From NCBI GenBank assembly GCA_028715175.1, contig JAQUSJ010000001.1, positions 212,550-276,549 on the forward strand: DNA of 64,000 bases. Direction: 5' to 3'. This document shows positions 6,765 to 56,076 of the stretch, in pieces. The position numbers and the translations under genes were made by a program. Under the pieces are notes generated by a model. That model was not told the origin of the DNA. It did no database searches and saw nothing but the letters and a program-made list of their open reading frames with translations. Numbering within the stretch: the first letter of the stretch is position 1; each line of letters opens with the position of its first letter. Origin of the DNA: Candidatus Daviesbacteria bacterium. GTDB lineage: Bacteria > Patescibacteriota > Microgenomatia > Daviesbacterales > UBA10151.

Positions 6765-6788
6765 TAAAAAACCTCCCGTTCGGGAGGT
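6765..6788 (-). terminator. rho-independent terminator after pheA (CCTCCC-GAAC-GGGAGG plus T6 on the minus strand)
   Basis: Perfect 6-bp GC stem followed by a U-run on the minus strand downstream of the pheA stop. Confidence 0.6.
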
Positions 6789-6978
6789 CTTTAATACCTT
6801 TCTTTTTTAGATAAAGTTTACCTAAAAAGATCTCCCTAAGAGCGCTCCGGTAAGGAGCACCAAAAGGAGGCCTAATAAGACTTCAATTCTTTTTAAATTT
6901 AAACTCAAACTTTTCGACATGATGATTATTATGCTAATAGCAGTCTCGTGATTTGTCAATAAGTGAGTAAACTATTTT

Positions 6979-7911
6979 TCATTGACCATTGATTGTGCCC
7001 GGATCTCTAGCACCTGCTGGCAACTCGGCTTTTCTGTATGAACCCAGTATTCTAAGTGAGGAACAGTAAGTAGTTTCTAGATCATTTATACCTTGTTTGA
7101 CCGTATCATTTTCAATATGCCCATCTATTGTAACCCAGAAAGCGTATTGTCTCATGATTCCGGTAGGTCGTGAATCTATTTTCGTTAAATTTATGTCGTA
7201 AGAAGCTAAAACCGTAAGGCATCTTGCTAACATTCCCGGACGATTGCTTTCGGGAACGATGAAGACGAGAGCAGTACTATCTTGACCGGTAGGTTTAGTC
7301 TCGCCTCTTCCCAGCATTAAGAAACGAGTAGAGTTGCCTTTCACGTCGCCTATATCTTCTGCAAGGATAGGTACATTGTATATTTGGGCGGCTCTTCTGC
7401 CAGCTATTGCTGCAATTTGTTTATTGTTTCTTGCAAGTTCAACTGCTGCCGTAGTGCTGGAGGACGGCTCTTGTTTTGCTTGGGGATAATTATTTAAAAG
7501 ATAAGTCCTGCATTGAGCTAAAGCTTGAGGATGGGAATGAATTTCGCTTATTTCAAATCCTGGCCATCCTATTAACATATGCTGAATACCTAATATTGTT
7601 TCCCCAAGTATAGTGATACGTCTTGTATGGTTTAGTTCTCTTAAAACCTCTACGACATCTCCTTCGATTGCATTCTCCACCGGAACGACCCCAATGTCAT
7701 AATCGCCTGCTTCTACAGCTTGTACTACTGTTGCATTATAAGGCAAGAAGACAGCATCCATTTCGTCTAGATAATTACCTAACAATTCCCATCTGGCTGC
7801 TTCCGTGTATGTTCCTTCAGGACCTAAACAAGCTACTCTAGGTTTGATTCTACCTTGAGTAAGCTCGATCTTTACCGGATAATTATTTATTAATAATTCG
7901 ATCTTATTCAT
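6979..7911 (-). CDS. pheA: prephenate dehydratase (PDT catalytic domain plus ACT domain, no chorismate mutase domain)
   Basis: ACLGPEGTYTEAA, ESNRPGML and TKIDSRP motifs. Confidence 0.8.
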   Translation of the reverse strand: MNKIELLINNYPVKIELTQGRIKPRVACLGPEGTYTEAARWELLGNYLDEMDAVFLPYNATVVQAVEAGDYDIGVVPVENAIEGDVVEVLRELNHTRRITILGETILGIQHMLIGWPGFEISEIHSHPQALAQCRTYLLNNYPQAKQEPSSSTTAAVELARNNKQIAAIAGRRAAQIYNVPILAEDIGDVKGNSTRFLMLGRGETKPTGQDSTALVFIVPESNRPGMLARCLTVLASYDINLTKIDSRPTGIMRQYAFWVTIDGHIENDTVKQGINDLETTYCSSLRILGSYRKAELPAGARDPGTINGQ

Positions 7912-7925
7912 ATATTTTTTCCACT

Positions 7926-7957
7926 AAAAAACCTCCGTTTAAAAAAAATACGGAGGT
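7926..7957 (-). terminator. pheA leader terminator (attenuator segments 3:4): AACCTCCGT-AUUUUUUUUAA-ACGGAGGTT plus U6, ending ~15 nt before the pheA ATG
   Basis: Hairpin plus U-run on the minus strand upstream of the pheA start, so it is not a downstream terminator; see the attenuator finding. Confidence 0.6.
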
Positions 7958-8001
7958 TAGTTAATTTTTAGTTGATTTTTCTCAGCAAAACCAACCTCCG
8001 C

Positions 8002-8052
8002 TTAAGCGAAGGTAAAGAAGAACCAATTAATTCTTCCTACTGGTTTTTGCAT
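8002..8052 (-). CDS. pheL: pheA leader peptide MQKPVGRINWFFFTFA (16 aa, 5 Phe in the last 7 codons)
   Basis: ATG...TAA small ORF on the minus strand inside the pheA leader; Phe codons overlap attenuator segment 1; resembles E. coli PheL ([15 protein letters not shown]). Confidence 0.6.
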   Translation of the reverse strand: MQKPVGRINWFFFTFA

Positions 8053-8059
8053 AGATATT

Positions 8060-8088
8060 AATCTAACAAATATTTTTGATCTTGTCAA
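8060..8088 (-). promoter_or_regulatory. putative sigma70-type promoter for the pheL-pheA leader (TTGACA-17 nt-TAGATT on the minus strand)
   Basis: Consensus -35 hexamer, 17-nt spacer, 4/6 match at -10. Confidence 0.4.
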
Positions 8089-8117
8089 CATGTACTTCCT
8101 GCTGTTATGATGCATTC

Positions 8118-9530
8118 ATGCAGAGTCGCACTTTAATTTTGGATTGTAAGAATAAAATAGGCAAAGAAGTTAAAATTTGCGGCTGGGTACATACCAGACG
8201 AGACCACGGCAAGATTCTATTTTTAGATGTTTTGGATAGATCTGGAATCATTCAGGTTGTAGTATCTCCAGACAGTGTCCACCTCGAAGGAGTCAAAGTC
8301 CACCTTCGAGGTGAAGAGTTGCAGGTGCAACGCTACCTGGAAGGTGGGTTGCATGCAATACATCCGCAAGATGTTGTTTGTATAACTGGGAGAGTAAACA
8401 AACGTCCGGAAAACCTTATTAACAAAAATATTCCTACAGGAGAAATAGAGATTTCAGCAAAAGAAATTGAAGTTTTATCTAAAGCGCAGGAGTTACCTTT
8501 TGATATGGGAGGTAAAGACTTAGATTTACAGCTGCCTACTTTACTTGATTATCGCTCCCTTACTTTGCGCCACCCGAAAGTCAAAGCCATTTTTAAAATT
8601 CAAGAAAGTTTACTAGAGGGATTTAGAAAAGCTGCCAAAGATTTGGGATGCACAGAGATTATAGTGCCGACGATTGTGGCAGGAGCGACAGAAGGCGGTG
8701 CGGAAGTTTTTAGAATAGACTATTTTGAACACAAAGCTTACCTTTCCCAAAGTCCCCAACTTTACAAACAAATGCTGGTTCCGGTATACGAGCGGGTTTT
8801 TACCATAGCCAAGGCTTACCGTGCTGAGCCATCAGTGACGACCAGGCATTTGACTGAAAGCACTCAAATGGATGTTGAGATTGGTTTTGTGGAATTTGAA
8901 GAGTTACTGGATATTTTGGAGAATGCAGCGATTAAGATGTTAAAAATCGCTGAAGAAGAATGTAAAGAGATTTTATCCGAGTTTGGAGTGGAGAAGACTG
9001 CTTTTGGCTCGCCTCGCTCCGCGGGCGGAGCGGGCAAAATTCCCAGGCTTACTTTAAGGGAAGCGCAAGATATTCTCTTAAAAGAATTTGGGCGGGACAA
9101 CAGAAAGGAAAAAGATCTAACGCCGCAGGATGAAGCAGATCTTTGTAAATGGGCAAAGAAAAGTCACGGTAGTGATTTTGTGACGGTGACACATTTTCCC
9201 ACCAATGCCAAACCATTTTACACAATGCCGGATCCGAAAAATCCGGAATATTCCTTAAGTTATGATTTATTATTCAGGGGAGTGGAAATTATGAGCGGCA
9301 GTCAGAGGATTAATGATTATCAACAGTTGGTTGATTCAATCAAATCAAGAGGTATGGATCCAAAATCTTTTGAGATGTATTTGCAGGCTTTTAAATTTGG
9401 TATGCCTCCGGAAGGTGGATTCTCCTTTGGGTTGGAAAGAATTACTATGCATGTTTTGAATTTAGCTAATGTTAGAGAAGCCAGTCTTTTCCCGAGAGAT
9501 ATGGAAAGAGTAGACACCAGGTTGAGATGA
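8118..9530 (+). CDS. aspS: aspartate--tRNA ligase, class IIb archaeal/eukaryotic type (AsnRS not excluded)
   Basis: OB-fold N-terminus (KICGWVHTRRDHGKILF), QSPQLYKQ, class II motifs (AYRAE, GSQR); true start probably the ATG at 8118 (MQSRTLIL...) rather than the ORF-track start at 8076. Confidence 0.75.
   Translation: MQSRTLILDCKNKIGKEVKICGWVHTRRDHGKILFLDVLDRSGIIQVVVSPDSVHLEGVKVHLRGEELQVQRYLEGGLHAIHPQDVVCITGRVNKRPENLINKNIPTGEIEISAKEIEVLSKAQELPFDMGGKDLDLQLPTLLDYRSLTLRHPKVKAIFKIQESLLEGFRKAAKDLGCTEIIVPTIVAGATEGGAEVFRIDYFEHKAYLSQSPQLYKQMLVPVYERVFTIAKAYRAEPSVTTRHLTESTQMDVEIGFVEFEELLDILENAAIKMLKIAEEECKEILSEFGVEKTAFGSPRSAGGAGKIPRLTLREAQDILLKEFGRDNRKEKDLTPQDEADLCKWAKKSHGSDFVTVTHFPTNAKPFYTMPDPKNPEYSLSYDLLFRGVEIMSGSQRINDYQQLVDSIKSRGMDPKSFEMYLQAFKFGMPPEGGFSFGLERITMHVLNLANVREASLFPRDMERVDTRLR
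8280..8313. repeat. dispersed hairpin repeat, copy inside aspS (CACCTCGAAGG-AGTCAAAGTCCA-CCTTCGAGGTG), in frame, encoding ...HLEGVKVHLRGE...
   Basis: 11-bp inverted repeat with 12-nt loop; both arms carry a compensatory change relative to the other copies (G>A paired with C>T). Confidence 0.7.
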
Positions 9531-22980: not shown

Positions 22981-23004
22981 AAAAAAACTCGCGCAAAGCG
23001 AGTT
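22981..23004 (-). promoter_or_regulatory. terminator-like hairpin (ACUCGC-UUUGC-GCGAGU plus U7) ending immediately before the ribE start, within a ~75-nt leader that also carries a 10-bp GAAA-tetraloop hairpin (23011-23034); putative promoter TTGACC-17-TATAAG at 23038-23066 (minus strand)
   Basis: Read directly from the sequence; no FMN-riboswitch-like conserved segments present. Confidence 0.4.
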
Positions 23005-23105
23005 TTCTTGAAAAGCTATCTTTCGATAACTTTTAATCTTATATCAAATGGTTTAAGTTTGGTCAAGTAGTACAAAATAGATCAAATCATTGATATAATA
23101 GTTAT

Positions 23106-55386: not shown

Positions 55387-55415
55387 TGACAAGATATGTT
55401 AATCAATATATAATC
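55387..55415 (+). promoter_or_regulatory. consensus sigma70 promoter (TTGACA-17-TATAAT) driving the ~165-nt greA leader
   Basis: Perfect hexamers and spacing. Confidence 0.6.
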
Positions 55416-55558
55416 CATTTTAATATGACACTTGCTAAAGCAATGGTTTCAAAAAAAATTGTCTCCCTTTTCACATCTCCTTGCCGGGGGGGCCACTATG
55501 GCCAACAGGCGCAGGGAGGTCTTTTTAGGTAAAAAAACCTAAAATCCCAAAGCAAAGG

Positions 55559-55585
55559 AGACCTCCTCAAAAGGGAGGTTTTTTA
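55559..55585 (+). promoter_or_regulatory. greA leader terminator hairpin (ACCUCC-UCAAAAG-GGAGGU plus U6) ending at the greA ATG; upstream GGGAGGUC could pair alternatively with GACCUCC (antiterminator)
   Basis: Read directly; E. coli greA has a leader terminator (GraL). Confidence 0.45.
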
Positions 55586-56076
55586 TGGCTGGAGTAAAAC
55601 AACAATTGACAAGAAACGGACAAAATATCTACATTACTGCCAAGGGTTTAGCTGATGCTAAAGTAGAGTTGGAGTTTTTGAAAAAGACTAAGAGGGTTCA
55701 AATTGCCGAAAAAATTCATCAGGCCAGAGAATATGGAGATCTGGCTGAGAACTCTGAGTATGATGCTGCGCTGGAAGAACAGGCTATGGCAGAAAGCCGC
55801 ATTTCGGATTTAGAGGACATCCTTAAAAGCGCAAAAATCATAGAAAATCAGCATACTCAAGATTTTGTGGTGATCGGATCAACAGTCAAAGTTGAGATGG
55901 ATGAAGGAATTGATGAATTTACTATAGTAGGAAGAGTTGAAGCTGATCCCTCCAAAAAAAGAATCTCCAATGAATCGCCTTTAGGTCAAGCTCTTATGGG
56001 TGTTCAAAAAGGAGAAACAATTGAGGTAACAACGCCGATAGTCAGATATAAGTGTAAGGTTCTTGACATAAAATAA
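55585..56076 (+). CDS. greA: transcription elongation factor GreA
   Basis: N-terminal coiled coil with conserved acidic tip (YGDLAENSEYDAA) plus FKBP-like C-domain. Confidence 0.85.
   Translation: MAGVKQQLTRNGQNIYITAKGLADAKVELEFLKKTKRVQIAEKIHQAREYGDLAENSEYDAALEEQAMAESRISDLEDILKSAKIIENQHTQDFVVIGSTVKVEMDEGIDEFTIVGRVEADPSKKRISNESPLGQALMGVQKGETIEVTTPIVRYKCKVLDIK

Follow-up and report, generated by a model that had tools for sequence, protein, structure and literature searches.

Can a bacterium of the Candidate Phyla Radiation (CPR) control pheA through the translation of a short leader peptide, in the manner of enterobacteria? The question is raised by the minus-strand leader of pheA, the gene for prephenate dehydratase, in a 64,000-nucleotide stretch of a Candidatus Daviesbacteria genome (assembly GCA_028715175.1, contig JAQUSJ010000001.1, positions 212,550 to 276,549 of the forward strand; this whole stretch is called the window below). 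An earlier note, made from the letters alone, had proposed such an attenuator in what looked like a reduced-genome, AT-rich lineage, and the guess about the lineage was right (CPR/Microgenomates, ~39% G+C). We consider it likely, with a probability of about 0.85, that the leader acts as a Phe-responsive, ribosome-mediated transcription attenuator that would couple pheA to the supply of charged tRNA-Phe. As in known leader-peptide attenuators, the locus holds an open reading frame (ORF) with a codon run before the cognate gene, an intrinsic terminator, an antiterminator together with a competing upstream helix, and pairings that in our folding model follow the position of the ribosome. The mechanism itself is textbook; what is new is the lineage, the probable leaderless start and the apparent reuse of the platform.

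Competing helices in the pheA leader

From promoter to gene, the leader comprises the following features; lengths are in nucleotides (nt), base pairs (bp) and amino acids (aa).

8088-8083, minus strand: -35 hexamer TTGACA of the leader promoter, from sequence reading
8065-8060, minus strand: -10 hexamer TAGATT, with a 17-nt spacer from the -35; TG at 8068-8067 makes an extended -10
8052-8002, minus strand: leader ORF, 16 codons plus TAA (ATG 8052, TAA 8004-8002), peptide MQKPVGRINWFFFTFA
8038-8015, minus strand: 10-bp hairpin within the leader ORF, AGGAAGAAUU pairing with GGUUCUUCUU (UGG/Phe codons)
8025-8008, minus strand: regulatory codons UGG UUC UUC UUU ACC UUC (W10 F11 F12 F13 T14 F15)
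8013-8006, minus strand: segment 1, ACCUUCGC (codons T14-F15-A16), which pairs with segment 2
8001-7993, minus strand: segment 2 core, GCGGAGGUU; extended form GCGGAGGUUGGUU at 8001-7989
7958-7950, minus strand: segment 3 core, AACCUCCGU; extended form AACUAACCUCCGU at 7962-7950
7938-7926, minus strand: segment 4, ACGGAGG and then U6, the terminator 3' arm and U run
7911-6979, minus strand: pheA, the regulated gene, encoding a monofunctional prephenate dehydratase of 310 aa with Pfam PDT and ACT domains

The promoter (10 of 12 consensus matches) is present as the earlier note had read it, and so is the 16-codon Phe-rich ORF, which lies inside the range 7926-8091 given there; the last seven residues of its peptide hold four Phe and one Trp. 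Segment 2 has two possible partners, since the first 8 nt of GCGGAGGUUGGUU can pair with segment 1 or all of it can form 13 bp with segment 3. Segment 3 (AACUAACCUCCGU) supplies the antiterminator with its 3' strand and, through the last 9 nt, the terminator with its 5' arm; segment 4, when counted as the 9-nt ACGGAGGUU (7938-7930), takes in the first two U of U6 (7931-7926). Helix 1:2 has 8 bp around a UUAA loop that contains the stop codon (-11.6 kcal/mol). Helix 2:3, the antiterminator, has 13 bp (-18.9 kcal/mol, or -21 computed as a duplex), and helix 3:4, the predicted terminator (7958-7926 with U6), has 9 bp, five of them G-C, and an 11-nt loop (about -12.2 to -12.7 kcal/mol). The pairings are mutually exclusive in that the antiterminator shares one strand with the terminator and one with 1:2. 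Coordinates and energies thus bear out the four-segment scheme of the earlier note; its lengths for 1:2 (with the UUAA loop) and 3:4 (with the U run) stood, whereas 2:3 is 13 bp and not about 11, and the distance from terminator to pheA, put at about 15 nt, is 14 nt (U run ending at 7926, ATG at 7911).

The 152-nt leader folds at -47 kcal/mol, compared with -26 +/- 3.4 in dinucleotide-preserving shuffles (z = -6.1; none of 200 was as good), and its 2:3 duplex was better than all 1000 random windows of the same sequence. A simple terminator scan, which admits loops of 3-8 nt only, did not list helix 3:4 because its 11-nt loop exceeds that range.

To model the switch, a ribosome footprint was masked codon by codon and the RNA was folded as it exists before the terminator 3' arm is made; the model is one of equilibrium folding, with kinetics not included. 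It was applied to 16 leaders, comprising this one and those of the relatives described below. When aromatic codons occupied the A site, each of the 16 sequestered the terminator 5' arm in an antiterminator of -18 to -30 kcal/mol, the terminators having energies of -10 to -24 kcal/mol; with the stop codon in the A site, the arm was not sequestered in any of them. In the window copy, segment 2 is left free when the A site is on W10-F13, and also on T14 in the footprint scan, whereas without a ribosome 1:2 and 3:4 both form, which in the model means termination. A stall scan codon by codon placed the last permissive codon at the end of the aromatic run. Only this 3' boundary of the permissive window is informative: early codons are not discriminated, since 1:2 is intrinsically less stable than the antiterminator. 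As a positive control, E. coli pheL run through the same script was permissive from codon 5 to F14 and gave the terminator at the last sense codon, at the stop, at early codons and without a ribosome, which is its textbook behavior. The folding check that had been suggested for the alternative structures therefore came out in favor of the switch, with 2:3 and 3:4 behaving as they do in pheL.

Conservation and codon content of related leaders

Relatives were gathered through exact-protein look-ups (most loci; all 12 obtained in this way were used) and two collection scans, one of genome contigs with PheA alignment and one of metagenome contigs with a single protein; among the collection-scan matches listed, L001, L087 and L089 were usable close relatives. 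This yielded 16 leaders at 14 distinct loci, all on Daviesbacteria-type contigs; PheA identity ranges between 97% and 41%. The closest PheA relatives are all Daviesbacteria. Cluster names assign L170 and L172 to Daviesbacteria, and the 90%-identity cluster of L178 includes a Levybacteria protein. The loci are not assembly duplicates, as their sequences and gene orders differ. In every one of the 16 leaders, an ATG opens an ORF of 15-27 codons that holds an in-frame aromatic run, and an antiterminator, a terminator and, straight after the stem, an uninterrupted run of U6-U8 are present. Wherever a relative has intergenic DNA in front of pheA or DAHP synthase, such a mini-ORF, a terminator and an antiterminator lie there, with the single exception of L167, which has a T-box. 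The Phe-rich mini-ORF and hairpins, whose absence from relatives the earlier note had named as grounds for dropping the idea, are thus conserved, and with compensatory changes. The leader peptides of the relatives are listed here.

L081: MQKPVGRINLFFFTFA
L178: MQKSGKTFLFFFTFA
L176: MKQYSNVTIFSFFFFTFA
L177: MKQCNNLAIFGFFTFA
L181: MQIQTRLSSTTFFEFFFTFA
L179: MQILDKKAFGFFTSAS
L089: MTNQRRLFSFFFTFRKEGGLLG
L170: MNLRSNLYFWFNFTFRKEGGLLG
L168: MKSAVNVFWFRYFSFTFRKEGGLN
L175: MNFNKFTWFKYFTFTFRKEGGLK
L001: MNLIKTWNFYFYFTFQKGGGLLG
L083a (first leader of L083, before DAHP synthase): MNILKQSNYFWFYFTSPREAS
L083b (second leader of L083, before pheA): MNIKQQLTNIPNKEFFFFTPPKDGGHS
L180: MKNISQTSYFWFYFSS
L172: MVTKSNTFRTWFFFSS

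A blind scan of both strands of the Daviesbacteria-type loci and the 64-kilobase (kb) window for an aromatic mini-ORF plus terminator returned these sites, one more copy in L170, and two evident false positives inside genes. The 10-bp hairpin within the window's leader ORF is shared with some relatives only (L081, L178 and L089); it might serve in pausing or as a protector.

Peptide N-termini and spacers drift between leaders, while the aromatic run, its frame and the position of the stop relative to segment 2 are kept. The four segments vary jointly between sequence flavors, of which we noted five (segments 1/2/3/4).

Flavor A: ACCUUCGC / GCGGAGG / CCUCCG- / -CGGAGG
Flavor B: ACCUUCC / GGAGGGAGG / CCUCCC / GGGAGG
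Flavor C: AGCUCC / GGGAG / GCUCCC / GGGAG
Flavor D: ACUCCGCC / GGACGGGGG / CCCCCGCC / GCGGGG
Flavor E: CCUUCC / GGGGGGG / CCCGCC / GGCGGG

In whole-leader MAFFT alignments, the most divergent copies (L001, L083b and the window) had segment 3 or their stems out of register, so covariation was counted on a hand-registered alignment of 7-nt cores in place of a covariance model.

Helix 1:2: 88.8% of cells paired, 41-59% with the 3' partner slid, double-sided changes at 4 of 7 pairs
Helix 2:3: 88.8% of cells paired, 51-66% with the 3' partner slid, double-sided changes at 5 of 7 pairs
Helix 3:4: 89.8% of cells paired, 49-61% with the 3' partner slid, double-sided changes at 6 of 7 pairs

An alignment-free test pointed the same way: when the stretch just past the aromatic run was paired with the terminator 5' arm, the duplex ranked, at every locus, in the best 0-1.4% of 1000 random windows of that locus.

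Three database PheA calls, P0039 (L172), P0064 (L179) and P0066 (L181), begin inside the attenuator, as follows; the real starts of these proteins are after the U run.

L172, 3001-3072: called start just past the leader ORF, in the spacer; real start ATG 3073
L179, 3001 onward: called start within segment 3
L181, 1989-2030: called start within the terminator loop

The codon run appears to follow the regulated gene. Leaders of pheA alone have Phe-only runs or Phe plus one Trp, with two exceptions (L170 and L175), whereas all four operons that contain DAHP synthase have mixed Phe/Tyr/Trp runs. Tyr codons occur in 4/4 leaders of DAHP-synthase operons and in 2/12 others (Fisher p = 0.008, uncorrected for relatedness). 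DAHP synthase opens the pathway from which the three aromatic amino acids are all made. In L083/L084 there are two tandem attenuators, with YFWFYF before DAHP synthase and FFFF before pheA.

The exceptional locus L167, with a PheA 74% identical, has a pheA-pheS-pheT operon preceded by a T-box (RF00230; 2724-2966) and not by a leader ORF. The T-box match scores 78.1 bits (E = 2e-17) over the full model length, below the Rfam threshold of 93; it has a very short stem I with UUC in its loop, and a long terminator with a U run follows. Its regulated gene, position and signal, tRNA-Phe charging, are those of the window leader, although a T-box senses uncharged tRNA by RNA-tRNA pairing, without translation. 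Swaps between T-boxes and leader peptides are known between phyla (PMC2965389); here the swap would have occurred among close relatives and would point to the same signal.

Likeness to known systems and rival explanations

Where does translation of the leader ORF begin? In the window, the -10 box ends 7 nt before the leader ATG, and in six other leaders the distance is 6-8 nt. By reading of the upstream sequences it is 6-12 nt in 14 of the 16 leaders (25 nt in L001, unclear in L083b), and none of the 16 ORFs has a Shine-Dalgarno upstream. Given this spacing and the lack of a Shine-Dalgarno, transcription probably begins on or beside the A of the leader AUG, which would make the leader mRNA leaderless or nearly so. 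With a 5'-terminal AUG, a ribosome could load as soon as the RNA emerges, which would suit an attenuator. Leaderless mRNAs seem common in this genome: a Shine-Dalgarno-like motif was seen in only 17 of 54 window genes, and a strong -10 box ends 6-9 nt before the start codon in 10 of 53, compared with 3.6% of all ATGs, a five-fold excess.

A further case, outside the set of 53, is the divergent neighbor aspS, whose features are on the plus strand.

8082..8120, plus strand: aspS promoter TTGTCA-18-TATGAT, with its -35 at 8082-8087, and probable aspS start codon

Its true start is probably ATG 8118, 6 nt after TATGAT, and not TTG 8076 of the longest ORF. The leader -35 (TTGACA, 8088-8083, minus strand) overlaps the aspS -35 (TTGTCA, 8082-8087, plus strand).

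Leader-peptide attenuators have been placed in Proteobacteria, Actinobacteria, Firmicutes and Deinococcus (PMC2965389, PMC1262725, PMC4007540), with classical attenuators in Corynebacterium and Streptomyces (PMC1262725). Deinococcus deserti has 14 putative leader peptides, encoded on leaderless transcripts ahead of genes for aminoacyl-tRNA synthetases and amino-acid biosynthesis (PMC4007540). The window leader is like these Deinococcus and actinobacterial leaders in starting at the presumed 5' end of its transcript without a Shine-Dalgarno; it differs in belonging to another phylum and in having no sequence relation to them, and its start is judged from -10 spacing only. An incomplete literature search found no paper linking leader peptides or attenuation to CPR, Patescibacteria or Daviesbacteria.

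The closest known counterpart is enterobacterial, as the earlier note had suspected. Rfam Phe_leader (RF01859) gave the window copy its top bit score of all families (25.3 bits, E = 0.031). L170 scored 31.6, the DAHP-synthase leader of L083 51.1 (E = 4e-8, full model) and the pheA leader of L083 18.2; all tested copies thus fall below the curated gathering threshold of 55 and are not RF01859 members by that test. In a search of 1.05 Mb, an nhmmer profile of the 16 leaders picked out E. coli pheL with E-values of 1e-4 to 5e-4 and gave no match in ~160 non-CPR pheA loci. Both pheL and the window leader have 15-16 codons ending in FFFTF plus one codon and a stop, about 126 nt from ATG to U run, and the cores ACCUUC, GGGAGG, CCUCCC and a G-rich arm with a U run, and in the model they switch by the same mechanism. 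They differ in that the E. coli ORF has a Shine-Dalgarno (AAGGAAACAAAC-ATG; AAGGA 7 nt before ATG) and the window ORF has none, and in that the E. coli Phe run pairs with a purine-rich strand further downstream to give a long helix, of which the window has only a degenerate version, its 1:2 being a short hairpin over T-F-A-stop. The product here is a monofunctional PDT-ACT protein, compared with the chorismate mutase/PDT fusion of E. coli. In the model, then, the Daviesbacteria leader acts like the Phe_leader family, and it resembles that family more than a generic attenuator would, a likeness that may stem from shared descent or from convergence under codon constraints.

In other metagenomes, pheA homologs also have aromatic leader ORFs and terminators of their own (L094 2326-2445; L095 41-115; L114/L129 ~2320-2470; L130 ~2317-2460), with peptides such as MKVTQTYFWFYPTPSLEG and MKSFASFRYYYFYFAWKCEAGSCV. 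These loci are probably Bacteroidota, as their upstream motifs resemble the Bacteroidetes TAnnTTTG promoter. They share with the window a short aromatic ORF (as in MKVTQTYFWFYPTPSLEG) and then a terminator directly before the pheA homolog. None was matched by the Daviesbacteria-type profile, and L094, the one of the group compared with Phe_leader, gave no match to it. Vitreschak et al. reportedly predicted amino-acid attenuators in Bacteroidetes/Chlorobi in 2004.

Could helix 3:4 act on translation instead of transcription? In a purely translational attenuator it would only hide GGAGG, which a stalled ribosome would free through 2:3. The GGAGG of segment 4 in the window is Shine-Dalgarno-like and stands 7 nt before GUG 7924, the first codon of a possible coupling ORF.

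7924..7904, minus strand: possible coupling mini-ORF GUG GAA AAA AUA UAU GAA UAA, its stop overlapping the pheA start (AUGAAUAA)

In 13 of the 16 leaders such an arm is followed by a start codon at a distance of 6-8 nt, with the U run as spacer, a modest enrichment over the background of 0.40 after T6-8 runs (p ~0.001-0.004). In L180, L172, L001 and L175 this codon either starts the gene itself or shares its frame; elsewhere it opens a mini-ORF of 4-14 codons whose stop overlaps or abuts the gene's ATG (ATGA in L170, L176, L177 and L178). Moreover, pheA has no good Shine-Dalgarno of its own. On the other hand, stops near A-rich gene starts are common and some of the genes possess a weak GGAG or GGAA themselves, the U6-U8 directly after every stem is a hallmark of intrinsic termination, and L083b and L181 keep hairpin and U run although they have no suitably spaced start codon. 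The two modes are compatible. Translational control as the sole mechanism is unlikely; that the terminator hairpin also gates translation has an even chance at best. We also considered GTG 7924 as the real start of pheA and rejected it, since this codon is not in the pheA frame and the N-termini of PheA proteins line up from ATG 7911.

A switch that works without a ribosome, by binding a protein, tRNA or metabolite, would make the Phe ORF a by-product of a pyrimidine-rich pairing strand. The segments are indeed CCUCC/GGAGG-type repeats, U/C-rich strands encode Phe, Ser or Leu anyway, and a greA copy of the platform (described below) sits behind an ORF without an obvious codon run. Yet in all 16 leaders an ATG just after the -10 box sets the Phe frame for the U-rich stretch, no riboswitch or T-box model matches the window copy (for the T-box, there was no match in the window at the gathering threshold, nor at E <= 10 around the leader), and UGG and UAU/UAC codons occur just where DAHP synthase is regulated. 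Because UGG and UAY are not pyrimidine-only, and because the run, frame, start and stop of the ORF are kept while N-termini and spacers drift, we regard this explanation as very improbable. Still less credible, to the point of being negligible, is a chance assembly of promoter, spurious small ORF and an insulating or terminating hairpin. AT-rich intergenic DNA does give many small ORFs and many promoter-like hexamers (17 found, 8 expected), but aspS adjoins the leader in divergent orientation, so that no terminator is needed to end a neighboring gene, the whole layout persists, with covariation, in relatives whose PheA identity is as low as 41%, and the folding z is -6.1.

Several observations nonetheless weigh against a Phe-responsive transcription attenuator. 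The terminator of the window copy has an unusually large, U-rich loop of 11 nt and a modest stability of about -12 kcal/mol. In many leaders the equilibrium model favors the antiterminator for a ribosome on early codons too, so that correct behavior must rest on the order or kinetics of folding. Hand registration and the relatedness of the sequences inflate the covariation figures toward structure, and the Phe_leader score of 25.3 stands against a threshold of 55. Finally, no chorismate mutase or aromatic aminotransferase was found in the 64-kb window, and CPR bacteria are generally reported without complete amino-acid pathways (PMC7143001), which makes any account of what pheA does for the cell tentative.

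On balance we favor transcription attenuation, which would proceed as follows. A leaderless mRNA would begin at the leader AUG, as the -10 spacing suggests, with a ribosome loading at the emerging 5' end and following the polymerase. With ample Phe-tRNA, the modeled ribosome reaches UAA in the 1:2 loop and covers segment 2; 3:4 would then pair, and its 9-bp hairpin with U6 would end transcription 14 nt before pheA. With Phe-tRNA scarce, it would stall on the Phe codons, covering segment 1 and not segment 2; the 13-bp helix 2:3 is predicted to form before segment 4 is made, no terminator would arise, and pheA would be transcribed. Without a ribosome, 1:2 and 3:4 would form and give termination. 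In the least supported step, the GGAGG of the terminator 3' arm would also be the ribosome-binding site (RBS) of the six-codon mini-ORF that overlaps the pheA start, and the hairpin may gate translation as well.

Possible reuse of the platform, and its meaning

The profile of the 16 leaders also matched the 3' half of the element elsewhere, that is segment 2, a spacer hairpin, CCUCCC-loop-GGGAGG-U6 and a start codon, while the ORF in front varies. These leaders, one of them with a Leu/Val-rich ORF next to pheA, are listed here.

L175, 315-431: Ile-run leader MQRFVSQIIIEIITFQKGGLS, run QIIIEIIT, before a 282-aa protein
L178, 977-1098: Ile-run leader MKLKTLSIISIIITSPKGGYFA, run SIISIIIT, before a 137-aa protein
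L168, ~225-337: Ile-run leader, run NIIKIIIS, before 83-aa and 93-aa proteins
L170, 3884-3992: second aromatic leader MDNNHKTSYWFFAFV, whose ATG overlaps the last codons of pheA, 8 nt before its stop
Window, 6920-6822, minus strand: Leu/Val/Ile-rich ORF of 32 codons, MSKSLSLNLKRIEVLLGLLLVLLTGALLGRSF, just after the pheA stop (region 6766-6959)
Window, 55387-55587, plus strand: greA leader, with a TTGACA-17-TATAAT promoter, a 35-codon ORF and a platform ending CCUCCUCAAAAGGGAGG-U6-AUG

The 137-aa protein of L178 is related to a 96-aa protein of L176 and a 145-aa protein of L083. In L170, the second leader has an antiterminator and a terminator and is followed by a 202-aa ORF with a perfect Shine-Dalgarno and no family assignment, which makes it a candidate for a new gene of aromatic metabolism. 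The ORF at 6920 has a promoter TTGACA-17-TAGCAT with the -10 box 10 nt before it, and is followed by two hairpins and then by GACCUCCC-GAAC-GGGAGG-U6-A-AUG of a 78-aa ORF without a Pfam or NCBIfam match. It is conserved in L081, L083, L088, L001 and L172, and its length and composition are like those of the E. coli ilvL leader. It may function in branched-chain amino-acid attenuation or encode a small membrane protein. A generic scan of the window for codon-run ORFs with terminators gave no other convincing amino-acid-run candidate. The platform copy before greA lies at 55425-55584, and the 19-mer GGGAGRTCTTTTTAGRTAA occurs exactly twice in the window, in the greA leader and at 6836-6818, with 0 expected by chance. 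In the switch model, the codon run of two Ile leaders and two Leu/Val-rich ORFs ends at or near the 3' edge of the permissive window. Pfam and NCBIfam gave no assignment for the uncharacterized proteins behind the other platform leaders.

These observations suggest a modular family of attenuators that share one platform. We offer more tentatively, as somewhat less probable than its opposite, the wider idea that the pheA leader is one output of a modular system across Microgenomates (Daviesbacteria, Levybacteria), in which a leaderless platform (segment 2 GGGAGG, spacer hairpin, CCUCCC-loop-GGGAGG-U6, start codon), with a terminator arm that doubles as RBS, would have been recoded with Phe or Phe/Tyr/Trp, Ile and Leu/Val runs plus the greA copy, possibly with ancestry shared with enterobacterial pheL. 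If this were true, supposedly auxotrophic bacteria would run a regulon that senses tRNA charging.

Other genes of the window include secDF, the CCA-adding enzyme, recJ, aspS, gltX, lysS, a riboflavin operon, pentose-phosphate genes, nrdR and ribonucleotide reductase, lon, an H+-pyrophosphatase and greA; no aromatic-pathway gene other than pheA was found in the 64 kb. The riboflavin operon (ribE, ribH, ribA, ribD; 22982-20224, minus strand) has a TTGACC-17-TATAAG promoter and a leader of ~60 nt (22983-23075) containing two hairpins, where a U7 run separates the second hairpin from the start codon; Rfam found no FMN riboswitch at 22983-23075. GC skew is positive in every 4-kb bin of the window (1-64000), and the plus strand carries the majority of its genes. 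A strong strand disparity is on record for other Microgenomates (PMC7143001).

The advance lies in the distribution and use of the mechanism, not in its kind. Attenuation requires a ribosome close behind RNA polymerase, and a conserved, covarying switch family is sequence-level evidence for such coupling in CPR bacteria, which cannot yet be grown alone. The codon run also serves as a readable label of specificity, so that attenuators before unknown genes give hints of function, as for the 202-aa ORF in L170, a 129-aa ORF in L175 and the proteins behind Ile-rich and Leu/Val-rich leaders. At least Daviesbacteria and Levybacteria would control prephenate dehydratase and DAHP synthase through the charging of aromatic tRNAs, which argues for a biosynthetic use of these genes in a group usually described as being without amino-acid pathways (PMC7143001).

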